A DNA stretch of 60,469 bases from Candidatus Omnitrophota bacterium (lineage in GTDB: Bacteria; Omnitrophota; Gorgyraeia; 2-02-FULL-51-18; JAGOUK01): assembly GCA_047639455.1 (NCBI GenBank), contig JBLINS010000004.1, forward strand, positions 1-60,469. Reading direction: 5' to 3'. Below the pieces are notes generated by a model. The model saw nothing but the letters and a program-made list of their open reading frames with translations. It was not told the DNA's origin and did not search any database. Numbering within the stretch: position 1 is the stretch's first letter; each line of letters opens with the position of its first letter. This document shows, one piece after another, positions 9,813-32,470 of this stretch. The position numbers were made by a program, and so were the translations under genes.

Positions 9813-11006
9813 TTACGCAGCGACGGCTAAAGACTTCCAGTATTTGGCGGGCATGCGTTTGGCCATTTTAAGCGCTCCATTGGCACCGGCGTAGACGGGT
9901 TCATCGACTCGGGTGACTTTACCTCCACCCAACTCTTCCATGCCCTCTTCTATCAGCTTGTCCAAGCCAATCATCTTACTACCTCCACCGGCAAGGATAA
10001 TCCTTGAGCGTATGTCTTCTTGGAATTCGGGGTCATAACTGGATATGAGCTTGGCAATAGCCTTAATCATTCCGGGCACAATAGACTTACATGATTTACG
10101 TAATTCAGCTGTGATGTCAAACTCCGTTGGCTTGCCTTTTACAGGTAGCTTAACAATGAGATTATCTGTTTGCTTGGAAACAAAACCATTCTTCTCTTTA
10201 AACGCTCTAATCATATTCGTATTGAATTGTGCTTCCGGATATTTTTTGGCAATGAGTTCAGACAACTTTTCATCCACATAGTCACCGGCTGTGTCTAAGG
10301 TGATTTGGTCATCCGCATCAGGCATGGTTCCATGCAAACGACATAAATCAGTCGTTCCAGCTCCAATATCAATAACTAATGCCCTGTCCAATACATCCAT
10401 GCCATAAGCCACAGAAAAAGGCTCGGAAACAATCATCACCGCATCCATGACGTTCTTGCCCGAATCAACTAAGATTTTTTGGCTATTAATAGAAGCGCGT
10501 GCTGGAGCGCCAATAACCGCATATATAGGCTGACCAGATTTAGGCTTAACTTGTTTCAACATATGTTTTAATAATTGCTGCACAGCCAATAGGTTTTTAT
10601 TTTTGTCGACTGCCCCATTTTGTTGTATGACACCTTTAGCTAGGGGTCTAACCAAGTTAACAGACAAGCGATGTTTGAGGGCTTGTTCGCCAAATAAAGT
10701 CTTGGAGCCTGTTAGTTCTTTAGAAATCATATCTTTAGAATACCCGACATAAGTCGGCATAACCAATCGCATGCCAGTGGATGTGGACATGGCTGTTTGC
10801 GATGTGCCCAAATCAATGCCCACATAAAGTGGCTCTCCTGAATAAGCAGGTTTTGGTGGCGGGAATGTTGAATTCATTATAGCCGAACTAGGTGTTTTCT
10901 TAGTCAATACAGAAGCATCAAATTTTGGTGCTTTAGCCCTGCTTCTTACCTTGGTCCCATTGCTTCCATTTTTCTTAGCAGTGGTTGTGCGCTTTGCCTG
11001 AGCCAT
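9813..11006 (-). CDS. mamK: Magnetosome actin-like protein MamK with a basic N-terminal extension
   Basis: GIDLGTS, VRPLAKGVI, VIGAPARA, VSEPFSVAYG, IDIGAGTTDLC, LAGGGS and the MamK-type C-terminus GALKMAKRMPAKYW; context among mam genes. Confidence 0.92.
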   Translation of the reverse strand: MAQAKRTTTAKKNGSNGTKVRSRAKAPKFDASVLTKKTPSSAIMNSTFPPPKPAYSGEPLYVGIDLGTSQTAMSTSTGMRLVMPTYVGYSKDMISKELTGSKTLFGEQALKHRLSVNLVRPLAKGVIQQNGAVDKNKNLLAVQQLLKHMLKQVKPKSGQPIYAVIGAPARASINSQKILVDSGKNVMDAVMIVSEPFSVAYGMDVLDRALVIDIGAGTTDLCRLHGTMPDADDQITLDTAGDYVDEKLSELIAKKYPEAQFNTNMIRAFKEKNGFVSKQTDNLIVKLPVKGKPTEFDITAELRKSCKSIVPGMIKAIAKLISSYDPEFQEDIRSRIILAGGGSKMIGLDKLIEEGMEELGGGKVTRVDEPVYAGANGALKMAKRMPAKYWKSLAVAA

Positions 11007-11007
11007 A

Positions 11008-11439
11008 TCAAGTTCTCCCTTGTAATACTAAGTTTTGTTTGAATATAGTTTCTAAAACCGATTTTTCTTCTTCGTCCAAGCCTTCTTCATCACTAATCGA
11101 ATCCACAGCATCCTGAAATTGTGCCTCACCCATAGGTTGGCGCGTATTAGACTGAGCAACCTGCTCTTGCAATTGCAAAACGGCTTCGCTAATCATTTCC
11201 AAACGCTTTTCCAAATCCGCATTAGGCGTATTACGCTCATTAAGCATAGCTCTGATTTCATCGGCTAAAGACGAGGCAACTTCTTCTCGGGGTGCTGATT
11301 TGGCCTTCGCCCCGACTTTACCAGCCCCACTCTTAAATGTTCGGCCCACACGATTAACCACTTCTTGGCTTTTACGCACAAAAACACCGAGGCTTTTGAT
11401 CAAATTACCTTGTTTGTGTTCAAAGCGCTTTCTGTCCAT
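11008..11439 (-). CDS. Coiled-coil protein with basic N-terminus and acidic C-terminus; Mad26-like cytoskeletal accessory candidate
   Basis: Heptads LEKRLEMISEAVLQLQEQV; acidic DEEGLDEEEK; terminal IFKQNLVLQ resembles, from memory only, Mad26-type ends. Stop 1 bp from the mamK start. Confidence 0.5.
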   Translation of the reverse strand: MDRKRFEHKQGNLIKSLGVFVRKSQEVVNRVGRTFKSGAGKVGAKAKSAPREEVASSLADEIRAMLNERNTPNADLEKRLEMISEAVLQLQEQVAQSNTRQPMGEAQFQDAVDSISDEEGLDEEEKSVLETIFKQNLVLQGRT

Positions 11440-11835
11440 TTAATAGCCCAAGACCATCAGATGGCCCACAATCAACATGGCCACCATAATCCAAAAAATG
11501 ATGATTTGCGAATGTAATAAGCGGACATATTTACGTATATCCCGATTCATATCTACTTTAGAGCGCATCAAGAAACCAGCCAAAGTTAACCAAGCCATAA
11601 TGACCATGGATGTATATAACATCCAATTGCTCTGGAACTCAAGTAGCATATGGAATATCCCAAAAATAAAGCCAATAATATTACATTTAATATGCGCTTT
11701 TAACAAATCGCCCATGCTTTGTCTCAAGGCCTTATTGTCTGGCATGAGCTTATTAGCGACATATTTAATAGGTGTATAGGTATTGGCTACTAAAAGAAAA
11801 AATAAAGCCAAATTACCAAAAAGGGCAGACATCAT
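11440..11835 (-). CDS. mad2: 4-TM membrane protein with conserved His, Mad2-like
   Basis: G.LALFFL..N.Y.P start, His in TM2/3 (AHIKC, IFHM, LHSQ, VGH), 131 aa, inside the MGC. Resemblance to Mad2 is recalled, not searched. Confidence 0.5.
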   Translation of the reverse strand: MMSALFGNLALFFLLVANTYTPIKYVANKLMPDNKALRQSMGDLLKAHIKCNIIGFIFGIFHMLLEFQSNWMLYTSMVIMAWLTLAGFLMRSKVDMNRDIRKYVRLLHSQIIIFWIMVAMLIVGHLMVLGY

Positions 11836-12728
11836 ACTTGCACCATCCGTTTCTTCCGCTTGCGTTTAATGGGCGCAGTATTTGCGATTTCACTGGCTTC
11901 TAAACCAAGTGCTAATTTATCTTGAATAAACCTTTTTCTATAAAGCATATAGGCATAAGTGGCCATTTCTTTGGTGAATAAATAATTGAATCCGCCGCTA
12001 ATAACAATCCCAACAATGGGGATGCCGCTTGACAACTTACGCCGAGCATACCATTGTATGATTTTGGTAATCGCCAATTCAGAAATTTCTTTAGCTGCCA
12101 TACCACGAAGTTCTGAGCCAATTAAATTGCGCTTAACCATGGACGAAATCGCCGCATTAATGTCGTCAATTGCCAATTGGCGATCTTTTTCACGTTCTGA
12201 AGCAACTAAACAAAATATTTTATAAGCAAAATCTCGTTCGCTCTTCAAGTCTGGGTCATAACCATAGCAGGCTCCGATTTGTAAGACCATTTTCATATTG
12301 TGCATGAATATCAAAGGGATGTCCAAAAGAGCTAATGCAAATCCGGCGGTCGCAAAACCAGCACCTTGCAAAGTGGTCACAATTTGATTACGGCTAAAGT
12401 AACTCTGTGCTAATTCATCTAAATAAGGGGTGGGTAATTCTTTCATTTCCAATAGGCTATCGACTTCAATGCCCGAGTCCGATGTTTTATCTAATAAAGC
12501 ATCAATATTCACAAAATTTGTTGACGTATCCTGTAATGATTTAAGTGTTTTTTTCATCGGACCAATGGCTTTACTAAGTAATTTTTGGGGTAATATTCTA
12601 TCTATAGCGGAATCTATGGGTGAGAAAAAAAAGCCAACTATCATAGCGGCTTTGCCAGTCCTAAAACGCTGATCTTCCCAGCGTTCAATTTCGACCAAAA
12701 TACGATCGTCTTCAGGATTCCACTTCAC
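11832..12728 (-). CDS. EcsC-family protein
   Basis: LDIPLIF..NMKMVLQIGACYGYD and GIPIVGIVISGGFNY motifs typical of EcsC; 4-bp overlaps with both neighbours. Confidence 0.75.
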   Translation of the reverse strand: MKWNPEDDRILVEIERWEDQRFRTGKAAMIVGFFFSPIDSAIDRILPQKLLSKAIGPMKKTLKSLQDTSTNFVNIDALLDKTSDSGIEVDSLLEMKELPTPYLDELAQSYFSRNQIVTTLQGAGFATAGFALALLDIPLIFMHNMKMVLQIGACYGYDPDLKSERDFAYKIFCLVASEREKDRQLAIDDINAAISSMVKRNLIGSELRGMAAKEISELAITKIIQWYARRKLSSGIPIVGIVISGGFNYLFTKEMATYAYMLYRKRFIQDKLALGLEASEIANTAPIKRKRKKRMVQV

Positions 12729-13690
12729 GCTATCGGTTCCAAATACACATCCACATGGGCTATTGCCTTAACACGTTTCTTCAAAAGTGCGGTGATTTTG
12801 GTCGATACCTCTTCTATTTGAGCCAAACTATGCCCATTATTAAAATCAATTGTGACACCCACCCATAATTTGGTACCCATACGAATGATGCGAATACCTT
12901 CAGTTTTATGATTGACACAAATTTCGCTGACTGTTTGATTGATTTTATTCGTCAATTCCGTGTCCGGCGCCACATCTAATAATACTTTCAAATTGGAATA
13001 CCAATGATGTCCTCCATCAACAACAATCATCAAGCCCACGATTAGTGCTGCCAAATGATCAGCTGCCGCAAATCCAGGTCCCAACTGGGAAAGAAGAATG
13101 CCCAAGGTCACAGCCGTTGACGACCACAAATCAGCCTTGGCCTGCAAGCCATTAGCCATCAAGCCCACACTGTCTAATTTTTGACCTGCGCAAACATTGT
13201 ATCTAAAAATCATATAAGTCATAAAAACCGAAATAATGACAAATGGCAAACCGATTAAATCAGGCGTGACTAATTTGCCTTCTAATAGATAAATGCCGCT
13301 TTCAATAGCAATAAAAAGTCCTAAAGCCATTAATATGCTAAATACACCTAGGGCAACCAAATACTCGACTTTGCCATAACCATAAGGGAATTTGGAATTA
13401 GGTGCTTTTTGAGCTAATTTGAGGCTTATCCATATCATCACACTCGCCAAAACACAGGATAGAGATTGCATTCCATCAGCCATCAAGCCTTTAGAACCCG
13501 ACCAATAACCGCCAAACATCTTCAAAACTGTCAAAAAGATATTCGCAATAATTGTCCAAAAAACGATTTGTGCGGCGCAATCCTGGCAAGTCTTCTTTGA
13601 CCAAGGCAGCCCTTTAAAATTCTTAGAACTAGGTGAGTCTAGGGCTTCATTATCAGCAGCCGTTCGTGGAGGTTTAGTTTGTGTGCTCAA
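12725..13690 (-). CDS. Second CDF transporter, divergent MamB-like paralog
   Basis: N-terminal CxxC (CQDC), SKGLMADG, FPYGYGKVEY, CAG..LDS.GL.AN, cytosolic CTD. The TM2 metal site reads QSLSC instead of HSxxD. Confidence 0.8.
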   Translation of the reverse strand: MSTQTKPPRTAADNEALDSPSSKNFKGLPWSKKTCQDCAAQIVFWTIIANIFLTVLKMFGGYWSGSKGLMADGMQSLSCVLASVMIWISLKLAQKAPNSKFPYGYGKVEYLVALGVFSILMALGLFIAIESGIYLLEGKLVTPDLIGLPFVIISVFMTYMIFRYNVCAGQKLDSVGLMANGLQAKADLWSSTAVTLGILLSQLGPGFAAADHLAALIVGLMIVVDGGHHWYSNLKVLLDVAPDTELTNKINQTVSEICVNHKTEGIRIIRMGTKLWVGVTIDFNNGHSLAQIEEVSTKITALLKKRVKAIAHVDVYLEPIA

Positions 13691-14547
13691 TGTCGGCTGA
13701 ATCCTATATTAGTTACATGTTCATGTGGCAAAGTATCTGTGAACTTTTGATTCACGTTTTGTAATATGTTTTTTAAATCAGACACGGAACTATTCTTAGG
13801 CATGCTCACTTGAGCAACCACTTCTAATGTGACGCCCACGCGCCGTACCTTCAATGTTTTTAATTTGAGTCTTTTATCAGCCTCACGGATATGATCTGAA
13901 ATTTGGCCCAATAAATGACTATTGGTTGATCCGTCCATCAAACCCTTACAGGAATCCCATAAGAAATAAACACTATACCCAAGCAAAGCAAATGTCACTA
14001 ATATGGCCACAATATAGTCGATAATCAAGAACCCATCCCAAGAAAGAACAATGGATATGGTCGTCATACAAGAAACAATGAAATCGACTTGTAATAAAAA
14101 TAAAATGTGTTCAATATCGGCACTAATGGCCCCAAATATCTTATTCTTCCATTGGCGTAATACATATACATCGGCCACGGCAATAAAGGCGGCAATCGTT
14201 GCACCCAATAAACCATCCGGATATAGGGTATGCCAAAAAGTCACATGAATAACAAAGTACAATAAAAAACCCGTCAAAACGGCAATGAGTATCGATGAGG
14301 CCGCGACAATGATGAATTCCAACTTTTCCAAATTCAAATCAAATTTGAACCACCTCGAATTCGGCTTTTTGATTTCATCACTCATGAATATACGCAATAA
14401 ACATATCATTGTGATGAATATGCCAAATAAAGCGAATGATCCCGAAATTAAAAGCGATTTTGAATTAGACAATAAACCAAAACTTGTCTTTATCAACAAG
14501 GAGGCCGCAAAAAATAACAATAAGGAGAGTATGGTCTGTTTATTCAT
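13687..14547 (-). CDS. Second CDF transporter, degenerate MamM-like paralog
   Basis: EKLEFII..S.I..VLTGFLL resembles MamM TM3; CKGLMDG and a CDF C-terminal domain. TM2 Asp absent. Probable start ATG 14547 (MNKQ). Confidence 0.7.
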   Translation of the reverse strand: MNKQTILSLLLFFAASLLIKTSFGLLSNSKSLLISGSFALFGIFITMICLLRIFMSDEIKKPNSRWFKFDLNLEKLEFIIVAASSILIAVLTGFLLYFVIHVTFWHTLYPDGLLGATIAAFIAVADVYVLRQWKNKIFGAISADIEHILFLLQVDFIVSCMTTISIVLSWDGFLIIDYIVAILVTFALLGYSVYFLWDSCKGLMDGSTNSHLLGQISDHIREADKRLKLKTLKVRRVGVTLEVVAQVSMPKNSSVSDLKNILQNVNQKFTDTLPHEHVTNIGFSRH

Positions 14548-14549
14548 AT

Positions 14550-15011
14550 TTATCCAATACGCATCATTTCTGGACCACACCGTGGGCAAAATTGTCTTTG
14601 ATTAGCCGGGCCCCTGGTTTGCCAAGAGCAAACCTGGCATTGAAAGGTGCCTTGATTATTTTGGCCCCTAGACTGCATCGGCATACCCTGCGTAGGCCAA
14701 GACTGCTGCAATTGCATATTTCCTTGCATATTATTTTGCATAGGCATTTGTTGGAATTGCATATTATTTTGCATACGACGACGCTGATTAACCATGGCCA
14801 CATTCTGCATACCCGGCGATGTCGTCATAGTAGGTAATCCTGCAGGGGGTGCCGGCATGGGTAGTAATACCGTTGTCAATACTGCCACGGCCGCACACGT
14901 ACCTATGCCTAATACCCAGATCTTGGCTATGCCTGTTTTGGTGCATTGACTAGGGCAGGCGCCACAACCGGTTGGCCCGCATGATTTATGATCTTTGGGA
15001 TCTGTCTTCAT
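14550..15011 (-). CDS. Membrane-anchored protein: N-terminal Cys cluster, 1 TM, M/Q/N-rich linker, C-terminal Cys4 ribbon
   Basis: CGPTGCGACPSQC before the TM; CQVC...CPRC at the C-terminus. Confidence 0.7.
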   Translation of the reverse strand: MKTDPKDHKSCGPTGCGACPSQCTKTGIAKIWVLGIGTCAAVAVLTTVLLPMPAPPAGLPTMTTSPGMQNVAMVNQRRRMQNNMQFQQMPMQNNMQGNMQLQQSWPTQGMPMQSRGQNNQGTFQCQVCSWQTRGPANQRQFCPRCGPEMMRIG

Positions 15012-15013
15012 AA

Positions 15014-15970
15014 TTATCTAATCCTTTGCATATTAGCGCCACATTGTTGACATTGCGGCGTTTGACCCATTGGGCCCATGGCTTTATTCGAGCATTGTGG
15101 GCATTGGAATTGAGCCTGCATTTGAATATTATTTGGATTGGCAAAAGCCATGGGAGCAGGTGCTAGCTTCCTTCTAACCGGGGGCGTGATCGGGCGAACA
15201 TTATTTAATTCTCCCTCACCAACCTTAATTTGAACCGTTTGAATATCACCTTGTCGCATTATCACCATGGGGTATGTGCGCTCATTGCGGACCATACGAA
15301 CCATGCTTTGTAACCCTTGCGGACCTTGTGTCACGCGTTTTTTATTAAAACGCAGTATGATATCATTACGTTTAAGTCCAGCTTTGGCACCCTTAGAATT
15401 TCCCATAACACCACTCACCACTGCTTGCCCGGAACCCAACGACTTAACTTCAATGCCAAATTCGCGTATCAATAAAGGTCGCGAACCTTGTTGTCCAGAT
15501 CTTCTAGTTAAAGATTGTTGCGGCGCGAGATTAGGATTGGCCATCATCATGGATTGTGGATTAGGTTGCATTGGCGACATCATATTGGGCATGGCATTGG
15601 TATTTTGTTGCATCAAGCGTTGCTGCGCTTGCAGGTTTTGTAAAAGCATTTGTTGCTGTTGCGCAGGATTCGTTTGCATGGGTTGATTAGACATCATATT
15701 GGGCTGCATGGGCATATTCATGGCCACGGGATTCGCATTTTGTATGGGCTGATGCAAATTACGTGACTGCATATATTGCAAAGTCCCGGATTGAATATGT
15801 GTAGGTATGCCACCCGCTCTATTTTGTTGCATCTTAACTGACGGGTTCATGCCGGCAAACGGATCACCACTCACTCTAGCGCGAGCCGAGCCAATGGCCA
15901 TACCAATCACCAAAACCAAAACCGTAACACCTATGCCACCAGCAATCATCAATATACGTTTGTCACCCAT
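15014..15970 (-). CDS. Membrane-anchored PDZ protein with M/Q/N-rich linker and C-terminal Cys4 ribbon (MamE-Cter-like)
   Basis: N-terminal TM; PDZ EFGIEV...AKAGLKRNDIILRFN; CPQC...CQQCG. Confidence 0.75.
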   Translation of the reverse strand: MGDKRILMIAGGIGVTVLVLVIGMAIGSARARVSGDPFAGMNPSVKMQQNRAGGIPTHIQSGTLQYMQSRNLHQPIQNANPVAMNMPMQPNMMSNQPMQTNPAQQQQMLLQNLQAQQRLMQQNTNAMPNMMSPMQPNPQSMMMANPNLAPQQSLTRRSGQQGSRPLLIREFGIEVKSLGSGQAVVSGVMGNSKGAKAGLKRNDIILRFNKKRVTQGPQGLQSMVRMVRNERTYPMVIMRQGDIQTVQIKVGEGELNNVRPITPPVRRKLAPAPMAFANPNNIQMQAQFQCPQCSNKAMGPMGQTPQCQQCGANMQRIR

Positions 15971-15989
15971 AATAATATCCTATTAAACC

Positions 15990-16157
15990 TTAAGCTGATC
16001 GACCAAGTAAATAATAAAGCACAAGTCCTAGGACTGGCAAGAATATAATCAATAATATCCAAAGAACTTTTTTTACTGTGTCATGGTTACCCTTAACAAT
16101 GTCAAATATAGCTAATATATTTAATACAAAAACCACAAATCCAAGAATAACACCCAT
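15990..16157 (-). CDS. 55-aa PLDc_N-like membrane hairpin protein (missed by ORF track)
   Basis: Manual translation MGVILGFVVFVLNILAIFDIVKGNHDTVKKVLWILLIIFLPVLGLVLYYLLGRSA; RBS aaggag; K.LW...I..LP.LG..LY...GR is the PLDc_N (PF13396) signature. Confidence 0.85.
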   Translation of the reverse strand: MGVILGFVVFVLNILAIFDIVKGNHDTVKKVLWILLIIFLPVLGLVLYYLLGRSA

Positions 16158-16180
16158 TTCTTCTCTCCTTTATCTATTTA

Positions 16181-17146: not shown

Positions 17147-17147
17147 A

Positions 17148-19761: not shown

Positions 19762-19762
19762 A

Positions 19763-24071: not shown

Positions 24072-24079
24072 GTATGAAA

Positions 24080-24627: not shown

Positions 24628-24630
24628 GGT

Positions 24631-26292
24631 TTAACGCATTGATGCTTCTGTTTTGGCAACCGTACTACTGGCTGCACATGGTTGACCATTGACTTGATGA
24701 CAAGTCGCACATTTGCCACGCCATCCATGCGGCATTGGCGTATTGCAATTAATTGTCGGCAGGCCTCCGCCTGCACCACCAAATAGATCACTCAAAAAAC
24801 CCACATTTTGCATTTGCGCTTCATTAGCTCTGCGTCTTTCCTGACGCTCCATAATTGGCAAAGTTTGAGCAACGGTCATTTGACCTCTATTACCTGTCAT
24901 TTGAGCTACAGGTGTTCCCGTAGCGCAAGGCGCATCCAGAATTTGATGACAATTGGAGCAATTACCACGCCATCCATGCGGCATAATGGAATGACAAGTG
25001 ATTATAGGTGCGCCACCCAAAGCGATATTTTGCATATTGCCACCAAGATTTTCGGCTTGCATACGTCTATTTTGATTAATGTCCATCATACCTGCATTAA
25101 TACCAGCTTGAGATGTTTGAGCACCTGGGCTACCAGCTGGGCATGGGCCATCACGGAATTGATGGCAATTCTGACAAGCGCCACGCCATCCATGCGGCAT
25201 ACGTTTATTACAACTAATCGTGGGCGCTCCGCGCAAAGCCATATTTTGCATGGCAACCATATTCATATTACTCGAAGTTTGTGCGCCCGGAGAGCCTGCT
25301 GCGCATGGGCCGTCCCTGAATTGATGGCAATTCTGACAAGCGCCGCGCCATCCATGTGGCATACGTTGATTACAACCAACAGTTGGCGCACCTCCCATAG
25401 CAATATTTTGCATACCTCTATTTTGATTCATGGGCTCTTGGCGATTTTGATTATTATTCATGGGCCGAAGTTGATTTTGCATAGTTGTTCCACATAATGA
25501 ACAGCGCGGATTAGGCCAGACATTATTATTCTCTACGCGTAGTTTCCAACCGCATGTTGGGCAAAAAAAGTTCTTACGATCCAAATTCATATCATTGGCC
25601 ATCATAGCGTTTTGCTGCTGCATCATTGGGAATGATTGAGTGGGAGGCCCTAATTGAGGAGAAGCATTGGCAAAACCTTGCAATAAAGGATTCTGCATTG
25701 GAGCTATGGGTTGTTGCATGGGTTGCGGCTGAATCATAATGGGTTGATTCATGCGTCGATTTTGATTCACAACTTTAATGCCACCATCAATAGAGAATCT
25801 AGCTTGTCGGTACAAACTAAGGGCTTCTTTGACCTTGCCTTGATAACCGCCATAAGCGCGTATACCTGATTTGGTTAAGACATCATAAGCTTCTGGATTA
25901 ATACTACCGGCAATGACAGCGTCCTCTCCAAGTCCCGCGACAAAATAGGCCATTTGCGAAGAAGGAATCAACATACCCGCATAGGGGTTTTTGATTGATT
26001 CAATGAGTTTATTCCACTCGGGATTAATGACTAAATAATTCGTGGCCTGCGCCAAAGATAATGCGACATTCGAACGCATGGTCGGGCCATCAGCCGCAAC
26101 CACTACCCTGCCGCCGCCAACTGTATTAGCATCGGGATTATTTTTGTTGGGCGAATATAGGGCTAAGAGGCCTATGCCCAATACAAGCACAATGGCGCCG
26201 AATATATAAAACGCATTCAAGTCAGTTGTGTGCAAACGATTCTTAAAATCTTCTAGAGAAACTTCCGCTTTATTTTTGGATTTTTTTGCCAT
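24631..26292 (-). CDS. TM, NifX/NifB-like (Nitro_FeMo-Co) domain, Cys4 ribbon, four magnetochrome-like CxxCH repeats
   Basis: VVVAADG...YLVIN...IKNP...DAVIAGSINP.AY..L..SGI..Y..G.VKEAL; four P.I.C...MPHGWRG.C..CHQ...PC repeats. Confidence 0.8.
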   Translation of the reverse strand: MAKKSKNKAEVSLEDFKNRLHTTDLNAFYIFGAIVLVLGIGLLALYSPNKNNPDANTVGGGRVVVAADGPTMRSNVALSLAQATNYLVINPEWNKLIESIKNPYAGMLIPSSQMAYFVAGLGEDAVIAGSINPEAYDVLTKSGIRAYGGYQGKVKEALSLYRQARFSIDGGIKVVNQNRRMNQPIMIQPQPMQQPIAPMQNPLLQGFANASPQLGPPTQSFPMMQQQNAMMANDMNLDRKNFFCPTCGWKLRVENNNVWPNPRCSLCGTTMQNQLRPMNNNQNRQEPMNQNRGMQNIAMGGAPTVGCNQRMPHGWRGACQNCHQFRDGPCAAGSPGAQTSSNMNMVAMQNMALRGAPTISCNKRMPHGWRGACQNCHQFRDGPCPAGSPGAQTSQAGINAGMMDINQNRRMQAENLGGNMQNIALGGAPIITCHSIMPHGWRGNCSNCHQILDAPCATGTPVAQMTGNRGQMTVAQTLPIMERQERRRANEAQMQNVGFLSDLFGGAGGGLPTINCNTPMPHGWRGKCATCHQVNGQPCAASSTVAKTEASMR

Positions 26293-26310
26293 TATTAACC
26301 TTAATTAAAA

Positions 26311-28083
26311 TTAACCATTATTCATCATAGGGTCCCTATCTCTATGGACCATATTCATTTTACATTTGGGGCATACTGGATGGATGCCCATATCATTATT
26401 AATACTTAGCTGCCACCAACACTGTGGGCATACCAAAACGCGATCACGTCGCATTTCTGGCATTAAGCCATGTTGCATCAGAATGTTTCCATCAATATTT
26501 AAATTGTCTTGCATACCACCTCTAAACATCGGCCCAGCCTGTTGTCGATGAATTAGTATTGAGCCGTCAAAAGAGCATAGTGGGTGAACACCCATATCAT
26601 CATTGACACTCAAGCGCCATGAACAAGTTGGGCAAACCAAATTACGATCTTGGATATCCTCCCATATGCCATTATTGCCATTAATGCCATTCAGGCTAAA
26701 GCGTCCACCTCTATCATTATTGTTCATACCCATCATCATATTCATATTCAAATTATTCATATTATTCATGGGGCTAGTCGGCATATTTTGCATAGAATTC
26801 ATAGTAAAATTATTATTCGACATAACGGGCGCATTTTGCATAGCATTCATATTCATTGAATTAACACCCATGCCATTCATTGGCATATTATTGGTATTCA
26901 TCATATTCATATTGCCACCCATACCCATATTCATGCGCCGCCCCATGCCCACGTTTTGCATATTCATGGGTTGCATAGCCACATTTTGCATGCCGAGAAC
27001 ACGTCTATTTGGGTCCATGACGATTTGATCGCGGCCTTTGCCTGTGATGCCAAGTGCAGTGTCCATTTGATTTCCGTCCAAACGTTTTTGATTCTGTAAG
27101 GCCATATTTTGCATATTCGCATTATTGTTGCCACGCATATCCATATTCATGGGTTGCATAGCCATATTTTGCATATTATTATTGTTGCCACGCATATCCA
27201 TATTCATTGGTTGCATAGCCATATTTTGCATATTCATATTCATGGGTTGCATGCCCATATTGGGCATCGCTCCTCCCCGGCCAAACATGGCTAGGGTTTC
27301 GCGATGAATCATAGTCGTATTACAGCGCGGGCAGGCTGGATGTATGCCTTGATCGTCATTGACACTTAATCGAAATAAACATTGGGGACAAACCAGCATT
27401 TTGTCGCGTCTTGGATGCATCATCATATTCGTATTTGGAACCGGCTGCATGGGTGTTTGAATACCATTGGGATTGCCCATATGCGCATGCATTGCATGGG
27501 GATTCATGCCATTATTGCTTTGCACATTACCTAAACTAGTATGACCAGTAACATTGCGATGTTTGAGCACATATATTCGGATGGCTTGTTTCGCAGGCCC
27601 TGTATAACCCGCATGTACGCCCAAGCCTGATTGAGTCAAAATTTGTTGTGATTGGGGTGCAATTGAACCTGCAAGGACAGCTTCCTCTCCCATGCCACTA
27701 ACCAATATAGCCACTTGTTGAGGATTTGTGGGTGTATTAGCATAAGGGTTTTGAACAGCTTCGATGAGCTTAAAGGTATCTGGGTCAACTAACAAATAAT
27801 ATTTGGCTTGTGACATGATTGGCGCCACGGCGGAACGTAAAGATGGGCCATTCGCAGCTATCACAACAGGCTTTGAGTGACGAGCAATAGGATTGCTACC
27901 TTTTTGGGGTCCATAAAAAAATAAAAAGGCCAAGCCAAGCACGAGACTTATGGATGCGACCATAATAAAGGTAGTCAAATCCCAAGTCTTGAATAAATGC
28001 CTCAATTCCTCAATGGATGCATGCGTTACCTTCTCCGTCTGAGGCTTATTTGAAGTATTAGTTTTTTTACGTTTAGTTGCCAA
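26311..28083 (-). CDS. TM, NifX/NifB-like domain, three Cys ribbons and long Met/Asn/Gln-rich tracts
   Basis: Paralog of the flanking genes; three LVCP.C..(R/Q)LS(V/I)N(D/N)D.G.HP.C repeats; 57-bp tandem repeat near 27105-27235. Confidence 0.8.
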   Translation of the reverse strand: MATKRKKTNTSNKPQTEKVTHASIEELRHLFKTWDLTTFIMVASISLVLGLAFLFFYGPQKGSNPIARHSKPVVIAANGPSLRSAVAPIMSQAKYYLLVDPDTFKLIEAVQNPYANTPTNPQQVAILVSGMGEEAVLAGSIAPQSQQILTQSGLGVHAGYTGPAKQAIRIYVLKHRNVTGHTSLGNVQSNNGMNPHAMHAHMGNPNGIQTPMQPVPNTNMMMHPRRDKMLVCPQCLFRLSVNDDQGIHPACPRCNTTMIHRETLAMFGRGGAMPNMGMQPMNMNMQNMAMQPMNMDMRGNNNNMQNMAMQPMNMDMRGNNNANMQNMALQNQKRLDGNQMDTALGITGKGRDQIVMDPNRRVLGMQNVAMQPMNMQNVGMGRRMNMGMGGNMNMMNTNNMPMNGMGVNSMNMNAMQNAPVMSNNNFTMNSMQNMPTSPMNNMNNLNMNMMMGMNNNDRGGRFSLNGINGNNGIWEDIQDRNLVCPTCSWRLSVNDDMGVHPLCSFDGSILIHRQQAGPMFRGGMQDNLNIDGNILMQHGLMPEMRRDRVLVCPQCWWQLSINNDMGIHPVCPKCKMNMVHRDRDPMMNNG

Positions 28084-28112
28084 AATAATTGATCCCTTTG
28101 TTTGTATTCTGA

Positions 28113-29333
28113 TTAACCATTGTTGTTGTTATTATTATTATTGTTTCGCATATCCATATTCATGGGCATCATAGCCATATTTTGCATATTGTTATTGTTA
28201 CGATTATTATTGTTGTTTCGCATATCCATATTCATGGGCATCATATTATTATTGGCACCCATACCTTGATTCATGCCATTTTGATTAATCATATTCTGAT
28301 GTACTGTGGGTATGCCACAAAATGGGCAGCGCACATGATTGCCTATATCATTCTTAACTTGAATTCTCCACATACAATTCGGACAAACTAAAGTCCTATC
28401 CTTAGGCGTTTCCATCATAGGCTGATTCATAGCCACATTTTGCATCATCATAGGTTGCTGCTGCATCATCATGGATTGTTGCTGAGCCATGCTTGGCTGA
28501 GGATTGGACCAACCATACAATAATGGGTTTTGTGTATTTGATGACATGCCATTGGGTTGCATATTATTCATACCCATAGTTGGTTGCTGCATCATTCCTG
28601 GCTGTTGCATCATGGCGTTAGGATTCATGGGCATGTTTTGATTGCCTCTATTGCCTCCAATACCGACTTGTACGCCGGCAAGATTGCCCGTAGGGAATTG
28701 TTGAGGAGATGTTTTGCGTACGACCAAATATAAGTCAATCGCATTTTTGGCTCGTCCCGTGTAACCGCCATAGGCATTAATTCCCGATTGACTAAAGGCT
28801 ACATTTGACTGGGGGTTGATGAAGCCAGCAAGTACAGCTTCTTCACCCAGGCCGGCAACAAAATAGGCCACCTGAGTCATGGGCACTTGTTTTCCAAAAT
28901 AAGGATTTTTGATGGCTTCTAACAAACGACCATTAGCCGGATCAACCACTAAAAAATATTTGCCCGTAGATAAAGTTGGGGCCACATTGGAGCGTAAGGC
29001 TGGACCCGTTGCTGCAACCACAATTCTTTGACCAGCGGCAGTGACCATGCGGCCATTTTTATGCGCGCCACCCACATGCGGGTGATAAATGGCCAATACG
29101 GCTATACCGAGAACCAAAATAACAGCGGCAAATATAAAGAAAGTGTTCATATCCCATTTTTGTAAACGGCCTTTGATCACGTCATAAGACGGACCAATTT
29201 TGTCGCTTACTTGCTCTTTGATTTTTCCAAAAGTTTCGCCAACGGCGCTCGCACTCAAATTCTCAGCAATGCGTTGGCTGGTTTTTTTTCTAGGTGCCCG
29301 GGATACTTTTTTTCTTACTTTTTTTGCAGCCAT
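28113..29333 (-). CDS. TM, NifX/NifB-like domain, Cys4 ribbon and Met/Asn/Gln-rich tail
   Basis: IVVAATGPALRSNVAP...YFLVVDP...AIKNPY...EAVLAG; CPNC...CPFC; 72-bp repeat near 28141-28245. Confidence 0.8.
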   Translation of the reverse strand: MAAKKVRKKVSRAPRKKTSQRIAENLSASAVGETFGKIKEQVSDKIGPSYDVIKGRLQKWDMNTFFIFAAVILVLGIAVLAIYHPHVGGAHKNGRMVTAAGQRIVVAATGPALRSNVAPTLSTGKYFLVVDPANGRLLEAIKNPYFGKQVPMTQVAYFVAGLGEEAVLAGFINPQSNVAFSQSGINAYGGYTGRAKNAIDLYLVVRKTSPQQFPTGNLAGVQVGIGGNRGNQNMPMNPNAMMQQPGMMQQPTMGMNNMQPNGMSSNTQNPLLYGWSNPQPSMAQQQSMMMQQQPMMMQNVAMNQPMMETPKDRTLVCPNCMWRIQVKNDIGNHVRCPFCGIPTVHQNMINQNGMNQGMGANNNMMPMNMDMRNNNNNRNNNNMQNMAMMPMNMDMRNNNNNNNNNG

Positions 29334-29378: not shown

Positions 29379-29951
29379 TTAAACTTGTTTTTGTTGAGCT
29401 AAATTGCCTGAATTCAAAGCGCCATAATCATAACTAAAAGGCACGCTCACATAAATTCCGCGGCCATTGCGATATACATCTAAAAGAATGCCATCTTGAT
29501 AAGGTATTTGACTGGTGGCGGCCTCAAAAGTTTTGCCATTTGAAACTGGCATGTGATTAACTGCGCGAATCACATCAAACATTTGAACCGATTGTAATGC
29601 GGCTAAGCCGTATTGTTTGTCCAAGCCATAAACAAATACACCCTGTACTTCTCTGGGTATACCAAATTCTTTGCGCAATGTCCTACTCAGTGGCAATAAA
29701 TCAATGCCTAACCAACGCAAAGCCTTGCTGTTGGGCAAACGCTGACTTGCTGGCACAACATTCATCACTGGTACAGCCTGTCGACTTTGCCTCATTGTAC
29801 GCAAACCTCTCACAGCTGGACGCATTGATTGTGTCACAGCCAAAAAGTAAGTTAATGCCACCACAATCAAGACAACTAAAGCCGCATAAATGGGATAAGT
29901 CTTACAAAGTTTTTTGATTGTTTCAATCCATTCCATCAAAGTTTGCATCAT
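29379..29951 (-). CDS. Membrane-anchored single-PDZ protein (MamE-Cter-like)
   Basis: TM, then RWLGIDL...GVFV...FDVIRAVN...VYRNG; overlaps the mamE stop. Confidence 0.75.
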   Translation of the reverse strand: MMQTLMEWIETIKKLCKTYPIYAALVVLIVVALTYFLAVTQSMRPAVRGLRTMRQSRQAVPVMNVVPASQRLPNSKALRWLGIDLLPLSRTLRKEFGIPREVQGVFVYGLDKQYGLAALQSVQMFDVIRAVNHMPVSNGKTFEAATSQIPYQDGILLDVYRNGRGIYVSVPFSYDYGALNSGNLAQQKQV

Positions 29952-31390
29952 ATCAATTCTATCTTTCGCGTTATGGTTTGACCGTTTCTTAATATAATGA
30001 CATCAACCACATCACCAGCTTTAAAAGTTGGCAATATCATCGGTATATCTTGGGTTCGTTGAATGGGTGTATTGGCCAAGGATATAATCACATCCCCTCT
30101 TTGCAATCCGCCAATTGCCGCAGGACTATTATCAATGACGCGATTAATCACAACACCTTCTGAGAGAGGTGCATTCAATTGCCGAGCCATAATACTATCC
30201 ATGGTTAGTCCCTCAACTCCAAACTGAACCGGCTTGGTGGGCGCCATCGCTTGCGCTGTTTGGTTATTACCAAAGAATTGCCCAAATAATGGGAACTTCG
30301 CTTGTTGAGGTCCGTAATTAGTTCCTAATTGTGTGCCAATGAATTGCTTGGCGTCATTAATCGGTATGGCAAAACCTGTACCATTAAAAAAACCATTGGG
30401 TGCATAAATGGCTGTATTCACACCAATGACTTCGCCATCCATATTCACCATGGGGCCACCTGATGATCCGCGATTAATCGGTGCATCGGTTTGAATTAAG
30501 TGGTCATACCTCACACCATCAATGCGTGTTGATTTGCGTATACCGCTGACAATACCGCTAGTCACGGTTTGATGCATGCCAAAGGGACTGCCAATGGCAA
30601 TCACAAAGTCAGCTGTTTGTAAGGCATCCGAATTACCAAAACGCGCTGGTGGAATTCGACTACCCGCTTGAATTTTGATCAAAGCCAAATCGCGGGTTGG
30701 GTCATGTGCTATAAATTCTGCGACATAATCACGATCAATTTTGCCAGGCACGGTGACACGGATATTTCTAGCGTTTTTGACCACATGGTAATTCGTGAGG
30801 ATATACCCACGTGCATCAAAAAAAGTGCCTGCACCTATATTTTCGAAGCCTTGATTATCAATAAATTTATCTATAGTGCCATCAAATGGTTTGACGAATT
30901 GGGGGTCTTGTGGATTTGTTGGAGTGGTGGGCGTGTTTTGCTGAACCCACATAGCGTGTATGTCCACAACAGATGGCAAGGCTGTATTGACTGCATCCTT
31001 GAGTGCGTTTTGTAAACCAATATGACCTTGTTGTTTAGTTGCACCTTGAATAGCAACTGGTTGCATATTGGATTGCATGCCATTATTCATACCAGCAACT
31101 TGCCGCATAGCCACTTGTTGAAAGCTGCCATTATTTTGATTACGCAAAAGTGGTGAATTAACCGGGATGTTTTGAATGGGACTAGCAATCAAAGGTTGAA
31201 CTGGCACGGCAACCAAAGGTTGTGTTTGAGCGGCAGTTGCGTCAACAGCACCAAATAACAGGTGATCACCCTGTAATACACCCCAACCTACAATGGCAAC
31301 TAATAGCAAAGACAACACAATTATCCAAGGCTTTTTGGGCTTATCGCAAAAGAAATCGTCTTCGTGAACTTGTTCGCTAAATCGTGACAT
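29948..31390 (-). CDS. mamE: HtrA-type magnetosome protease MamE (TM, trypsin, PDZ)
   Basis: Intact triad TNYHVV, DLAL, GSSGGP; TDAPIN; C-terminal PDZ; context next to mamI. No CxxCH in this chain. Confidence 0.88.
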   Translation of the reverse strand: MSRFSEQVHEDDFFCDKPKKPWIIVLSLLLVAIVGWGVLQGDHLLFGAVDATAAQTQPLVAVPVQPLIASPIQNIPVNSPLLRNQNNGSFQQVAMRQVAGMNNGMQSNMQPVAIQGATKQQGHIGLQNALKDAVNTALPSVVDIHAMWVQQNTPTTPTNPQDPQFVKPFDGTIDKFIDNQGFENIGAGTFFDARGYILTNYHVVKNARNIRVTVPGKIDRDYVAEFIAHDPTRDLALIKIQAGSRIPPARFGNSDALQTADFVIAIGSPFGMHQTVTSGIVSGIRKSTRIDGVRYDHLIQTDAPINRGSSGGPMVNMDGEVIGVNTAIYAPNGFFNGTGFAIPINDAKQFIGTQLGTNYGPQQAKFPLFGQFFGNNQTAQAMAPTKPVQFGVEGLTMDSIMARQLNAPLSEGVVINRVIDNSPAAIGGLQRGDVIISLANTPIQRTQDIPMILPTFKAGDVVDVIILRNGQTITRKIELI

Positions 31391-31415: not shown

Positions 31416-31703
31416 TTAAAAAACCAAAACATCTGGATTGTTATTTGTCTGTCCTGAAATAGGATTTGTCAAAGCTACATGTTGCATATTAGCTGCGTCA
31501 GGTTTTGGTGTCGCATGTCCCCCGCCACCGCCATGATCAGCAGCTCCAGCCGTAATCACATTTTGAACTGACGAAATAGAAAGTTCGCGTCCACTACTCA
31601 CATAAGTGATAGCCAAAATAATTAAGCTGGCACCCAAAATCCATAATAACCCTATCCACGCATTCCAGCAGGTGTCAGGGTCCTTTAGTTTCATAGCAGG
31701 CAT
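31416..31703 (-). CDS. 95-aa single-TM protein ending in -VLVF
   Basis: TM, Gly/His linker DHGGGGGH, NMQHVAL; lies between mamI and mamE. Confidence 0.65.
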   Translation of the reverse strand: MPAMKLKDPDTCWNAWIGLLWILGASLIILAITYVSSGRELSISSVQNVITAGAADHGGGGGHATPKPDAANMQHVALTNPISGQTNNNPDVLVF

Positions 31704-31828
31704 ATATATCTCTAAAAAAAGTAATTATATATTATTAACGTTGAATTGGACATTTATTTATTGAATATTTTGTGTAACTTTAACAATTGCAATTAGTTCG
31801 CACTTGCAAACTAGATATTGTGTCGTAT

Positions 31829-32005
31829 TTATTTCTTGCTCTTTTGGCCCTTGAGTTGCAACCCGCTGGATACAGCCACCAAACCACCAATTAATAAGAA
31901 CAAGGGCACAGATCCTCTTAAAAAATCACCAAAGTTTTCCCACCAACCAATAATCCCTAGAACACCTAAAGCTAAAGCTATCAAACCACCGATGATATGT
32001 GACAT
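31829..32005 (-). CDS. mamI: Magnetosome membrane protein MamI (58 aa, missed by ORF track)
   Basis: Manual translation MSHIIGGLIALALGVLGIIGWWENFGDFLRGSVPLFLLIGGLVAVSSGLQLKGQKSKK has the MamI G...WW....FLRG.VP..L..G.VA..SG signature; RBS ggag. Confidence 0.93.
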   Translation of the reverse strand: MSHIIGGLIALALGVLGIIGWWENFGDFLRGSVPLFLLIGGLVAVSSGLQLKGQKSKK

Positions 32006-32008
32006 TTC

Positions 32009-32470
32009 TTAATCTCCTTGAATTAACTTAATGGGAGTTAGTCCCTTGTTTATATTTTTATGATCAGTTTTTGCAGATTTATTCGAAATATTGCTTTTAA
32101 AAGAGGCTAAATATTTGCCTGATGCAAATAAACCTTTTTGAAATAGGCCATTGGACTCTTTTTTGCTATTAATATGGGCTGCAATGCGATTTGGCCGGCG
32201 AGTTTTTTTGGGAATAATAAACTTTTTTTGCTGTGCCATTTCTTCAGCCAATATTTCGACAGTGCTTTCTTTGAGGCGATTTAATAAAGCTTGGTCTGCC
32301 ATTTTGCGTTTGGACATCACGCGCAACAAAGTACTCACTTCTATACGTCTGTGGCCACCCAAAGTTTTGATGGATTTTAATAAATTGCGGTCAGCCCAAT
32401 TCATTACAGTGAAGCGCGAGACATTACATAAATTGGCAGCTTGAGTGGTGGTGATATACTTTTGGTTCAT
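32009..32470 (-). CDS. Excisionase/MerR-like (HTH_17, BldC-like) DNA-binding protein
   Basis: YITTTQAANLCNVSRFTVMNWAD...KTLGGHRRI; first gene of the minus-strand MGC run, 3 bp before mamI. Confidence 0.85.
   Translation of the reverse strand: MNQKYITTTQAANLCNVSRFTVMNWADRNLLKSIKTLGGHRRIEVSTLLRVMSKRKMADQALLNRLKESTVEILAEEMAQQKKFIIPKKTRRPNRIAAHINSKKESNGLFQKGLFASGKYLASFKSNISNKSAKTDHKNINKGLTPIKLIQGD

Follow-up and report, generated by a model that had tools for sequence, protein, structure and literature searches.

A probable Omnitrophota-type magnetosome gene cluster carrying three tandem NifX-like genes

We analysed a 60,469-nucleotide stretch of DNA from Candidatus Omnitrophota bacterium (assembly GCA_047639455.1, contig JBLINS010000004.1, positions 1 to 60,469), here called the window, which carries a magnetosome gene cluster (MGC) from 32470 to 9813, entirely on the minus strand. 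With a probability of about 0.88, this interval is an Omnitrophota-type MGC that has the same architecture as the clusters of known magnetotactic Omnitrophota and in which a triplet of NifX-like genes, derived from one ancestral gene, is proposed to act in iron-precursor handling. An earlier note on this DNA, made from the letters and a list of open reading frames (ORFs), had claimed a genuine magnetosome cluster; this claim is borne out, given that Mam models are favoured over housekeeping homologues and that the locus is collinear with published clusters.

Results

The magnetosome core

The cluster consists of 28 clustered and co-oriented ORFs, 27 credible genes and one that is probably spurious, separated by -40 to +188 nt, so that no gap exceeds 188 nt. 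Reading frames are open in each of the 27 credible genes, and the genes lie close together. Core-gene identities were obtained by Pfam and NCBIfam scans, in which the Mam models were compared with housekeeping families, and are as follows (TM, transmembrane; CDF, cation diffusion facilitator).

31829-32005, minus strand: MamI, 58 aa, two TM helices; NF040963 60.3 bits, its sole match
29948-31390, minus strand: MamE-type HtrA protease with TM segment, trypsin domain and PDZ domain
22959-24071, minus strand: MamP, with TM segment, two PDZ domains and two CxxCH magnetochrome motifs
21590-22477, minus strand: CDF1 (g13), MamM/MamB-type iron transporter, SxxxD in TM2 and HxxxD in TM5
20657-21568, minus strand: CDF2 (g14), MamB/MamM-type iron transporter, HxxxD in TM2
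19763-20560, minus strand: MamA, TPR protein; NF040959 128 bits, next family 45 bits
18994-19761, minus strand: MamQ, LemA family; NF040966 128 bits (sole NCBIfam match), Pfam LemA 115 bits
17148-18983, minus strand: MamN-like transporter (g17), N-terminal TM segment and PDZ domain followed by CitMHS
16181-17146, minus strand: TauE/SafE permease ('MamO-Cter'); TauE 204 bits
9813-11006, minus strand: MamK, actin-like protein; NF040964 425.5 bits, cut-off 400

The set of genes described as 'present in all MGCs' (mamA, B, M, K, P, Q, E and I; PMC7449369) occurs together in the window, and NCBIfam Mam models are the best or sole match for each (the MamE scores are weighed in the Discussion). The MamK model outscores MreB about five times (425.5 versus 80 bits), and the protein is 63-77% identical to MamK-family proteins of Omnitrophota and Planctomycetota metagenome-assembled genomes (MAGs). 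For MamP, NF040965 reaches 206 bits versus 65 for the DegP subfamily, with 44 bits for the magnetochrome (MCR) family and 55 for PDZ_2, and identity is 46-52% in 17 related loci. CDF1 scores 204 bits with the MamM model NF033615 and 104 with FieF; CDF2 scores 237 bits with MamM and 227 with MamB, versus 96 with FieF. The MamN model NF040989 matches g17 with 303 bits, versus 31 for ArsB, next to CitMHS (174 bits) and PDZ_2. The MamI ORF was recognised from the public gene call on the same DNA; PF26391 is precomputed for an identical product, and MamI is 57-81% identical across 18 loci. MamE, with Trypsin_2 at 110 bits and a PDZ_2 domain, is 42-48% identical in all loci and has no magnetochrome motif and one Cys in total. 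On family scores, the core proteins thus side with Mam families and not with MreB, FieF, LemA and DegP, a grouping that the earlier note had named as the outcome speaking against it, MamE being ambiguous. The single-strand contiguous cluster with mamK, B, M, A, Q, O-Cter, P, E and I and with L- and N-like genes was recovered by the same scans.

A simple hydropathy scan predicted at least one TM segment in 22 of the 28 products, as expected of magnetosome-membrane proteins. Of the six CxxCH magnetochrome haem motifs encoded in the cluster, MamP has two and the NifX-like protein g07 has four; PF18509 detects them with 44.1 bits in MamP and with 57.7 bits, in four stretches, in g07. The TauE permease stands alone and matches the C-terminal part of the MamO model (33.5 bits), and the cluster has a single trypsin-type gene. 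This stand-alone state ('MamO-Cter') has been reported for deep-branching magnetotactic bacteria, and a stand-alone tauE is required for magnetite formation in Desulfovibrio magneticus RS-1 (PMC4287615). At the position of g17, two clusters not of the Omnitrophota type, L004 (GCA_030615025.1) and L029 (GCA_004196275.1; related loci are given by our locus numbers), contain a single 845-858-aa fusion of trypsin, PDZ and CitMHS. The N-terminus of MamA has a His-Asp run, HNHDHDHDHDHS, encoded by an in-frame 12-nt tandem repeat at 20519-20551.

NCBIfam and Pfam scans of the 28 cluster products gave no match to MamJ, Mms6, MamC/D/F/G or MamY/Z, and the MamX model matched MamP merely via the shared haem motif (22.9 bits). 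Beyond the cluster, the family scans covered the larger flanking ORFs, 43 of the larger ORFs of the window having been scanned overall. The absence of mamJ, mms6, mamGFDC and mamXY, claimed earlier for the window as a whole, therefore stands for the cluster products and the larger flanking ORFs.

Collinearity with Omnitrophota clusters

A profile of the N-terminal TM and NifX-like region, used against one genome per GTDB species, retrieved 18 loci; an earlier genome scan with a single MamB-like protein had returned 136 exact-peptide pattern matches and no relative, the patterns being too strict. By title, 16 of the 18 loci belong to Candidatus Omnitrophota/Omnitrophica and two to Planctomycetota/Planctomycetales. 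Most of the 16 are from the MAG set of Lin et al. 2020 (e.g., nCal2_bin1, nS315_bin20 and nDJH6_bin18), whose genomes come from cells enriched magnetically and were screened for magnetosome clusters (PMC7602337).

Gene order was compared by tblastn and by iterative hidden Markov model searches (jackhmmer) on six-frame ORFs. The shared order is HTH-mamI-g02-mamE-PDZ-NifX/ribbon/MCR-g09-mamP-mamL-like-CDF-CDF-mamA-mamQ-mamN-tauE-PLDc_N-PDZ (HTH, helix-turn-helix). Collinearity from the HTH gene to g20, at approximately 30-80% protein identity, was found in 11 full-length Omnitrophota-type loci; the upstream part is collinear in 17 loci, and the 3' half in L006 and L008. Core genes are 40-77% identical across divergent lineages, pointing to purifying selection. 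On sequence similarity and gene order, the formerly unnamed genes are thus conserved members of a known Omnitrophota cluster type. Nearly every gene that had seemed impossible to name has a positional orthologue in at least 16 public Omnitrophota genomes, and the description of the inventory as atypical cannot be kept. The extra genes do form a lineage-specific set, conserved in order across the related loci, and as claimed the cluster is non-proteobacterial, its nearest syntenic counterparts lying in Omnitrophota MAGs. The suggested Omnitrophota host agrees with these MAGs and with a 99.99%-identical contig titled 'Candidatus Omnitrophota bacterium', the NCBI title being that of a g05 fragment on this contig.

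The same gene order as in the window is found in the MGCs of nS315_bin20 (JADGBA010000003.1), nCal2_bin1 (JADFWS010000003.1), nDJH13_bin20, UBA10174 and ELA581. Shared with the clusters of the Omnitrophota MAGs are the small genes g02, g09 and g12 and the gene for a TM-NifX-ribbon-magnetochrome protein. However, those clusters have one NifX-type gene with one or two CxxCH motifs, whereas the window has three, two of them haem-less and with tails containing 17% Met. No EcsC orthologue turned up from those MAGs, while the window has one. The second CDF pair of nCal2_bin1 is located upstream of its HTH gene, and its mamK is on another contig, whereas both are part of the contiguous 3' half in the window. 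The GC content of the window is approximately 41%, compared with 51.5%, 57% and 37% for three entire MAGs of Lin et al. and 39-57% for the fetched related loci.

The NifX-like triplet

In place of the single NifX-type gene of each of the 18 related loci, the window has three.

28113-29333, minus strand: g05, paralogue a; basic N-terminal tail, TM segment, NifX-like domain, Met/Asn/Gln-rich linker and one Cys4 ribbon; no CxxCH
26311-28083, minus strand: g06, paralogue b; TM segment, NifX-like domain, three ribbon-type modules and repeated MQNMAMQPMNMDMR units; no CxxCH
24631-26292, minus strand: g07, paralogue c; TM segment, NifX-like domain, one ribbon and four magnetochrome units

Common to the three products are a basic N-terminal tail, one TM helix, a domain of about 110 aa and Met/Asn/Gln/Pro-rich linkers with Cys4 ribbons of the consensus F-x-C-P-x-C-x-W-R ... 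P-x-C-P-N-C; the second CxxC of the middle ribbon module of g06 is imperfect. Their N-terminal TM and NifX regions are 43-48% identical to each other. The tails of g05 and g06 contain 17% Met and 18-21% Asn (21% in g05) with the reiterated MQNMAMQPMNMDMR unit, and g06 has a 57-nt tandem repeat at 27101-27237.

The NifX family profile built here (A3) matches g05 with an E-value of 4e-62 and g06 with 6e-54. Pfam Nitro_FeMo-Co reaches 27.6 bits in g07, above the cut-off, and 22.4 bits in g06, below the threshold, where DZR is matched as well. In g07, PF18509 (MCR) scores 57.7 bits, and the MamT and MamP models match the protein through these MCR units; g07 hence unites magnetochromes and a NifX/NifB domain in one polypeptide, while g05 and g06 have the NifX-like domain only. 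Among solved structures of NifX/NifB-like proteins and relatives, the A3 profile matches PDB entries 1rdu (2.6e-16), 1eo1, 1o13 and 2wfb, with E-values from 3e-16 to 1e-8; 2wfb is the Mo-Cu-cluster 'orange protein' (ORP). By sequence profile, the domain thus belongs to the NifX/NifB-C/ORP superfamily (PF02579). A PDB profile search with the Cys4 ribbon returned generic zinc-ribbon and zinc-finger fragments, by which zinc and iron (rubredoxin-like) are not distinguishable.

A HMMER search of 1.8 billion representative proteins gave 988 matches to the NifX profile, including 26 clusters with the full TM-NifX-ribbon-MCR architecture, most of which end in one or two magnetochrome motifs of the form APPI..MPHxYRGxCxNCHQ. 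The next tier of matches has two or three magnetochromes, a PDZ domain and two NifX-like domains and is FmpB-like. The near-uniqueness of the family, suggested by a word-indexed search with two matches, was overturned by this search. Representative members are named 'predicted Fe-Mo cluster-binding NifX family protein' alone, with no Mam or Mad labels.

In the 18 related loci, the NifX-type gene encodes zero to four ribbons and, in 16 of them, one or two CxxCH motifs. The departure of the window from the single-copy state marks a variant and is still compatible with membership in the Omnitrophota type. In L031, a contig of a different metagenome, the end of a g06-like gene precedes an orthologue of g07 (85% identity). 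Given this arrangement and the 43-48% identity of the paralogues, the sequence evidence argues that the tandem array is real and older than this population. The genes g05 to g07 are tandem paralogues of a single ancestral gene.

The basic N-terminal tails of g05 to g07 predict an N-in topology. As haem attachment also needs export, the NifX-like domain and the ribbons would face the periplasm-derived magnetosome lumen. The machinery needed for haem attachment to the six magnetochrome motifs would be provided by a system II cytochrome c maturation pair at 41438-44379 (minus strand; ResB-like and CcsA-like, Cytochrom_C_asm), 9 kb upstream of the cluster. A hexapeptide, MQN[VMI]A[ML], occurs ten times in g05, g06, g07 and g21 and not at all in 12,412 residues of non-cluster ORFs. 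It precedes three of the four magnetochrome units of g07, and relatives have QQVAF or NQVAM at comparable places, often ending in ...VAFG..C[VI][IL][RK]. The hexapeptide may mark a module boundary or serve as a signal for sorting or cleavage.

Other small and accessory genes

The NifX-like triplet, the PDZ and Cys-ribbon proteins, the EcsC protein, the PLDc_N hairpin and the second CDF pair are present as the earlier note had described them. The small and accessory genes of the upstream part and the middle of the cluster are listed first.

32009-32470, minus strand: g01, HTH_17/excisionase-type DNA-binding protein, first gene of the cluster; Pfam HTH_17 38 bits
31416-31703, minus strand: g02, 95 aa, single TM segment, between mamI and mamE
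29379-29951, minus strand: g04, TM segment and PDZ domain only, at the position of FmpA/'MamE-Cter'
24445-24627, minus strand: g08, 60 aa, single TM segment
24080-24448, minus strand: g09, 122 aa, CxxC, TM hairpin, CxxC
22774-22989, minus strand: g11, 71 aa, probably spurious, in overlap with the 3' end of mamP
22480-22770, minus strand: g12, MamL-like/LapA-like, two TM segments and a His/Asp/Glu-rich tail; LapA_dom 17 bits, weak
15990-16157, minus strand: g19, PLDc_N two-TM hairpin, 55 aa; PF13396 57 bits
15014-15970, minus strand: g20, TM segment, Met/Gln/Asn-rich linker, PDZ domain and C-terminal Cys4 ribbon; PDZ_6, PDZ_2
14550-15011, minus strand: g21, N-terminal Cys cluster, TM segment and one Cys4 ribbon; no CxxCH

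The DNA-binding protein g01 (TIGR01764 32.9 bits, above the cut-off) has a homologue heading all 17 longer related loci and L036, and is a candidate regulator of the cluster. Jackhmmer located g02, which has no Pfam or NCBIfam match, at the same position in 18 loci of other genomes and in the window's own locus, L005. The PDZ domain of g04 is weak; the protein matches the MamP model with 41.8 bits and is conserved in 17 loci. For g08, there was no significant sequence match among the related loci; positional analogues (62-77 aa, 'MEPIS...' and a TM segment), placed between the NifX-type gene and g09, were seen in four of five inspected loci (L011, L012, L018 and L024) and none in L021. The hairpin protein g09 is kept in 17 loci (E about 1e-45) and matches no family. 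The ORF g11 overlaps the end of mamP, has no Pfam or NCBIfam family and no homologue in any related locus, and is probably spurious.

Orthologues of g12 lie between mamP and the CDF genes in 12 Omnitrophota loci and in L004, L029 and L035. Its tail contains an in-frame tandem repeat (22510-22551) encoding a His-Asp run, HGHDDHDDHDDHDEDD...HHH; the tails of the orthologues are acidic and have no His runs. A PLDc_N gene follows tauE in L006, L008, L035, L011, L012, L015, L016, L018, L024 and L026 and adjoins mamK in L030. Orthologues of g20 come after PLDc_N in L006, L008, L012, L021 and L035, and those of g21 were found in L006 and L008. An architecture like that of g21 precedes the CDF pair in L011 and L036, with two and one magnetochrome units, respectively, and no significant sequence match; compared with these proteins at the same position, g21 has the ribbon but lacks the magnetochromes.

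The 3' half and the adjoining iron module

Between g21 and mamK, the cluster continues with the second CDF pair, an EcsC gene and two small genes.

13687-14589, minus strand: CDF3 (g22), degenerate CDF with FALFG instead of the TM2 HxxxD/DxxxD metal site
12725-13690, minus strand: CDF4 (g23), MamB-like, QxxxC in TM2 and QxxxD in TM5; NF033616 MamB 174 bits
11832-12728, minus strand: EcsC-family protein; PF12787 131 bits
11440-11835, minus strand: g25, 131 aa, four TM segments, conserved His; no family
11008-11439, minus strand: g26, 143 aa, soluble, acidic, immediately upstream of mamK

CDF3 matches Cation_efflux with merely 34 bits, and in the alignment the loss of the TM2 site is common to its orthologues in L006 and L008. 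This shared loss suggests that CDF3 may be the non-transporting partner in a heterodimer. Its start is uncertain: the longest ORF begins at a TTG and overlaps g21 by 40 nt, and the public gene call gives 286 aa with a start at about 14547, leaving a 2-nt gap to g21. The pair of CDF3 and CDF4 is also present in L011 and L036.

The EcsC protein has seven relatives at E<=1e-20 among 5.8 billion proteins, and all six whose context was examined lie in magnetosome clusters; a metagenome scan with the EcsC alignment yielded three irrelevant short contigs. In L035, the order is MamL-like, CDF, CDF, MamA, MamQ, MamN, TauE, PLDc_N, PDZ, EcsC, two further genes, FeoB and FeoA. L036 (ENA ERZ28669879, 34% GC) is a different cluster type, in which an HTH gene is followed by a short TM-NifX and ribbon protein, a NapH-like Fer4_5 protein, a PDZ protein, a ribbon and magnetochrome protein, a CDF pair, two EcsC proteins, a HEAT protein, a ParA-like protein and two volactin-like actins. 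The module of PDZ, haem-ribbon, CDF-pair and EcsC genes hence extends beyond Omnitrophota-type clusters.

The protein g25 is limited to the clade of the window (88% identity in L006, 48% in L008). Seven loci (L004, L006, L008, L009, L010, L029 and L030), which represent three cluster types, have a g26 homologue immediately upstream of mamK. Because of this constant position, g26 is a likely candidate for a MamK partner. In L009 (GCA_015232235.1), L010 (GCA_002753465.1) and L030 (nCal2_bin1 contig 35), mamK and a g26-like partner are found outside the main cluster, and the fetched stretch contains no further recognisable mam gene; the gene after mamK is TPR/MamA-like in L009 and L010, whereas L030 has a PLDc_N gene there. 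The occurrence of the pair apart from the main cluster indicates that the actin module is separable from the biomineralisation module.

Adjacent to the cluster, and outside the interval 9813-32470, lies an iron module identified by Pfam.

3463-9271, minus strand: the entire iron module
7253-9271, minus strand: hybrid histidine kinase-response regulator with CBS domains, between mamK and fur
6404-6856, minus strand: Fur (Pfam precomputed)
4337-6379, minus strand: FeoB (Pfam precomputed)
3463-4140, minus strand: FeoA/DtxR-type fusion (Pfam precomputed)

The closest MamK proteins are encoded on the metagenome contigs L006 (77% identity) and L008 (69%), both with the order mamN, tauE, PLDc_N, PDZ, ribbon, degenerate CDF, CDF, EcsC, two small genes, mamK, fur and feoB. 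The L006 contig ends within feoB, and L008 goes on with a feoA/dtxR-type fusion, a porin and further genes. No histidine kinase is found between mamK and fur in either contig, so that the kinase of the window looks like a lineage-specific insertion. In L035, feoB and feoA lie downstream of EcsC, past two further genes. In three lineages the cluster is followed by feoB, accompanied by fur, feoA or both, and according to Lin et al. 2020 (PMC7602337) feoB usually belongs to such clusters; on this basis, we extend the functional unit to approximately 3463.

Composition, assembly support and flanking genes

The GC content is 0.37-0.44 throughout the 60 kb, with no step at the cluster borders. Scans of the window for tRNA genes and Rfam families gave zero matches. 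In a consensus promoter scan, counts were at or below the shuffled expectation, and terminator-like sites were slightly enriched over shuffled sequence in 1-13600 only; inside the cluster, neither scan gave anything exceeding the shuffled controls.

The MamK protein is encoded on contigs of JGI metagenome 3300054976 and of two SRA runs, SRR28416755 and SRR28416802, whose identity to the window is 99.94-100%. The JGI contigs break the cluster, with the ends of Ga0535667_0000717 and Ga0535667_0001771 at 28976 (in g05) and 14096 (in g22), and the deposited JGI/NCBI MAG has no contiguous copy of 14097-28975; the cluster is thus recovered more completely in the window than in the public MAG. The stretch from 9748 to approximately 22848 is covered by Logan contigs.

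Further genes of the window include an aquaporin (33450-34142) divergent from the cluster, two further hybrid sensor kinases (34184-36829 and 46613-49093) and, at the window end, type IV pilus/type II secretion genes (PilM-like, T2SSF and T2SSE; 53678-60469, minus strand). An IS200-like Y1 transposase fused to a DnaA-C-type HTH (49949-50995, minus strand) is the sole mobile-element-like gene among the scanned ORFs of the window.

Discussion

The division of labour within the cluster can be proposed from the homologous Mam proteins of Magnetospirillum and D. magneticus RS-1. MamI, the MamL-like g12, MamQ, MamB and MamA would remodel the membrane and sort proteins, together with the protease MamE and two PDZ proteins, g04 and g20. 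Iron and counter-ions may be supplied by the CDF pair g13/g14, the second pair g22/g23 (one member being degenerate), the PDZ-MamN-like permease, TauE and the downstream FeoAB/Fur. The c-type magnetochromes, two in MamP and four in g07, could serve lumenal Fe(II) oxidation, and MamK with its constant upstream partner g26 would assemble the chain. The ancestral NifX gene presumably encoded an N-in single-pass protein with a lumenal metal-cluster-binding domain of the NifX/NifB/ORP type, Cys4 ribbons and a magnetochrome. By analogy with FmpA and FmpB of RS-1, g05 to g07 would act early, in iron-precursor handling, nucleation and crystal maturation. After the triplication, their roles may have been split: g07 would have retained the redox haems, and g05 and g06, having lost theirs, would have acquired Met/Asn-rich repeats. 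The accessory set as a whole may serve crystal control, as the earlier note had supposed.

The closest experimental precedent is the mamE-fmpA-fmpB arrangement of RS-1, which shares with the window the succession of a MamE-type protease, a PDZ protein and a NifX/haem protein. Early magnetosomes are enriched in FmpA and FmpB, and when the Fe-Mo (NifX) domains of these proteins are lost, crystals are reduced in number and size and are misshapen (PMC4287615, PMC12748827). The RS-1 proteins are thus an experimentally studied precedent for NifX-like domains in magnetosomes. Compared with FmpB, however, the order in the window proteins is reversed, with the NifX-like domain N-terminal, right after the TM segment, and the haems C-terminal; g05 to g07 also lack a PDZ domain, have added Cys4 ribbons and are anchored by a TM segment, whereas a signal peptide is reported for FmpB, and their likeness to the RS-1 proteins is one of domain content and description. 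Because they have no PDZ domain and carry NifX directly after the N-terminal TM segment, g05 to g07 are best regarded as analogues or distant relatives of FmpB through the NifX domain and not as members of its family.

With the mamAB cluster of Magnetospirillum, the window has in common MamI, E, K, L-like, M, N-like, O (the TauE part), P, A, Q and B as well as magnetochrome haems. In contrast to it, no homologues of MamJ, MamH, MamR/S/T, MamXY, Mms6 or MamGFDC were detected in the window cluster, MamE is haem-less, MamO is represented by TauE only, and CDF, EcsC, NifX/ribbon and PLDc_N genes are additional. A Mam core accompanied by phylum-conserved unnamed genes is likewise known from the mad (Desulfobacterota/Nitrospirota), man (Nitrospirota) and mae (Elusimicrobiota; bioRxiv 10.1101/2022.07.08.499144) gene sets. 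Mad proteins defined by domains (HEAT Mad23, actin-like Mad28, NapH-like Mad6 and ParA-like ATPases) are, by Pfam domains, absent from the window cluster and present in L036. In the literature searched, we found no name for the Omnitrophota accessory set and no description of the Omnitrophota NifX/ribbon family beyond FmpA and FmpB of RS-1. Published work disagrees on whether the Mam proteins of Omnitrophota belong to the magnetite or the greigite type; in Lin et al. 2020 (PMC7602337), Fe3O4-type Mam proteins of Planctomycetota and Omnitrophota cluster together.

Several observations weigh against the interpretation as a functional Omnitrophota-type MGC with a NifX triplet. The source metagenome was apparently obtained without magnetic enrichment, so that magnetosome formation by this population is an extrapolation from its genes. 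MamK alone passes its NCBIfam equivalog cut-off, the remaining Mam scores being below theirs; these cut-offs appear to be tuned to close relatives of the proteobacterial Mam proteins. MamE scores 251 bits with NF040960 and 285 with the DegP subfamily, which makes it ambiguous by score alone, and its identity is decided by position and conservation. The cluster has no protease-type MamO; g17 may descend from a protease-transporter fusion and is a possible counterpart of the missing MamO protease half. Pfam NifX scores are at or below the threshold for g05 and g06, and an AlphaFold2 model of the NifX-like domain from a 3-sequence alignment was too poor (pLDDT 51.5), so that the fold assignment rests on profile-sequence matches. 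For 22849-28975, which contains the NifX triplet, there was no independent contig among those fetched. Finally, a single operon is suggested by gene packing only, the promoter and terminator scans having given no signal exceeding chance.

These observations feed rival explanations to different degrees. It is unlikely that the cluster, although intact in sequence, makes no magnetosomes or forms another iron inclusion, being a relic or the re-purposed cluster of an iron-storage organelle. The lack of a phenotype, the haem motifs lost from several paralogues and the MamK-plus-partner modules lying away from the main cluster in other Omnitrophota MAGs, by which parts of the system appear uncouplable, would fit such a fate. 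A relic, however, would hardly retain 27 open and tightly packed genes with a core identity of 40-77% under purifying selection, and orthologous clusters occur in MAGs from magnetically enriched, magnet-responsive cells. We regard it as quite improbable that the cluster was acquired recently by horizontal transfer or that the contig was mis-binned and its host is not a member of the Omnitrophota. The phylum is taken from the title of the NCBI MAG and not from phylogenomic placement, two of the 18 related loci are labelled Planctomycetota/Planctomycetales, with the Fe3O4-type Mam proteins of both phyla clustering together, and the IS200-like gene lies in the window; but GC is even from end to end, no tRNA gene was found in the window and no integrase among the ORFs scanned beside the cluster, 16 of the 18 closest loci are labelled Omnitrophota, and the flank with fur, feoB, feoA, porin, FMN_bind and ApbE is common to L008.

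An assembly artefact, by which repeat-driven expansion or a chimera of strains created the NifX triplet, is very improbable. The JGI assembly of the same sample does break at 28976 in g05 and resumes at 14096, and the region without a fetched independent contig contains internal tandem repeats; yet paralogues that are 43-48% identical and differ in architecture are not copies of one template, and the g06-like end and g07 orthologue of L031 come from another metagenome. Least credible of all is an ordinary envelope-stress or metal-homeostasis locus. Each core family (DegP, FieF, LemA, MreB and TPR) has housekeeping homologues, and MamE is slightly better on the DegP subfamily, but the magnetochromes in two proteins, the match of MamI to its own family, the score of MamK, the MamM/B, MamN, MamP, MamA and MamQ models beating their generic counterparts and the collinearity with published clusters effectively refute such a locus.

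Starting from the interpretation as an Omnitrophota-type MGC, a bolder proposal, which we consider doubtful but not far-fetched, is that the TM-anchored NifX, Cys4-ribbon and magnetochrome proteins constitute a so far undescribed machine for iron handling in the lumen of Omnitrophota-type magnetosomes. The NifX-like domain would hold an iron or iron-sulfur precursor and electrons would pass via ribbon iron and haem, so that the machine would replace Mms6, MamGFDC or Mad proteins in nucleation and shape control. The triplication would then have split the redox protein g07 from the haem-less g05 and g06, which could act as scaffold or condensate, possibly for a different mineral or crystal habit.

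The Omnitrophota-type cluster architecture as such is known already; new is the lineage-specific triplication and sub-division of an FmpB-like gene. Particular to the window are this triplication of the NifX/ribbon gene, the haem loss in several paralogues and a contiguous tail of the form EcsC-x-x-mamK-fur-feo. These findings leave the present view of magnetosome evolution as it is and hold no surprise for the specialist. Omnitrophota are uncultured and their MGCs are usually fragmented in MAGs, whereas the window presents a contiguous cluster of approximately 23 kb plus an iron-uptake tail and can therefore serve well as a reference, both for the Omnitrophota-type architecture and in heterologous-expression work. 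It also draws attention to a conserved and unnamed family of TM-NifX-ribbon-magnetochrome proteins, of which FmpA and FmpB are the only experimentally studied analogues and whose functions could be dissected with the help of the natural split into haem-bearing and haem-less paralogues found here.

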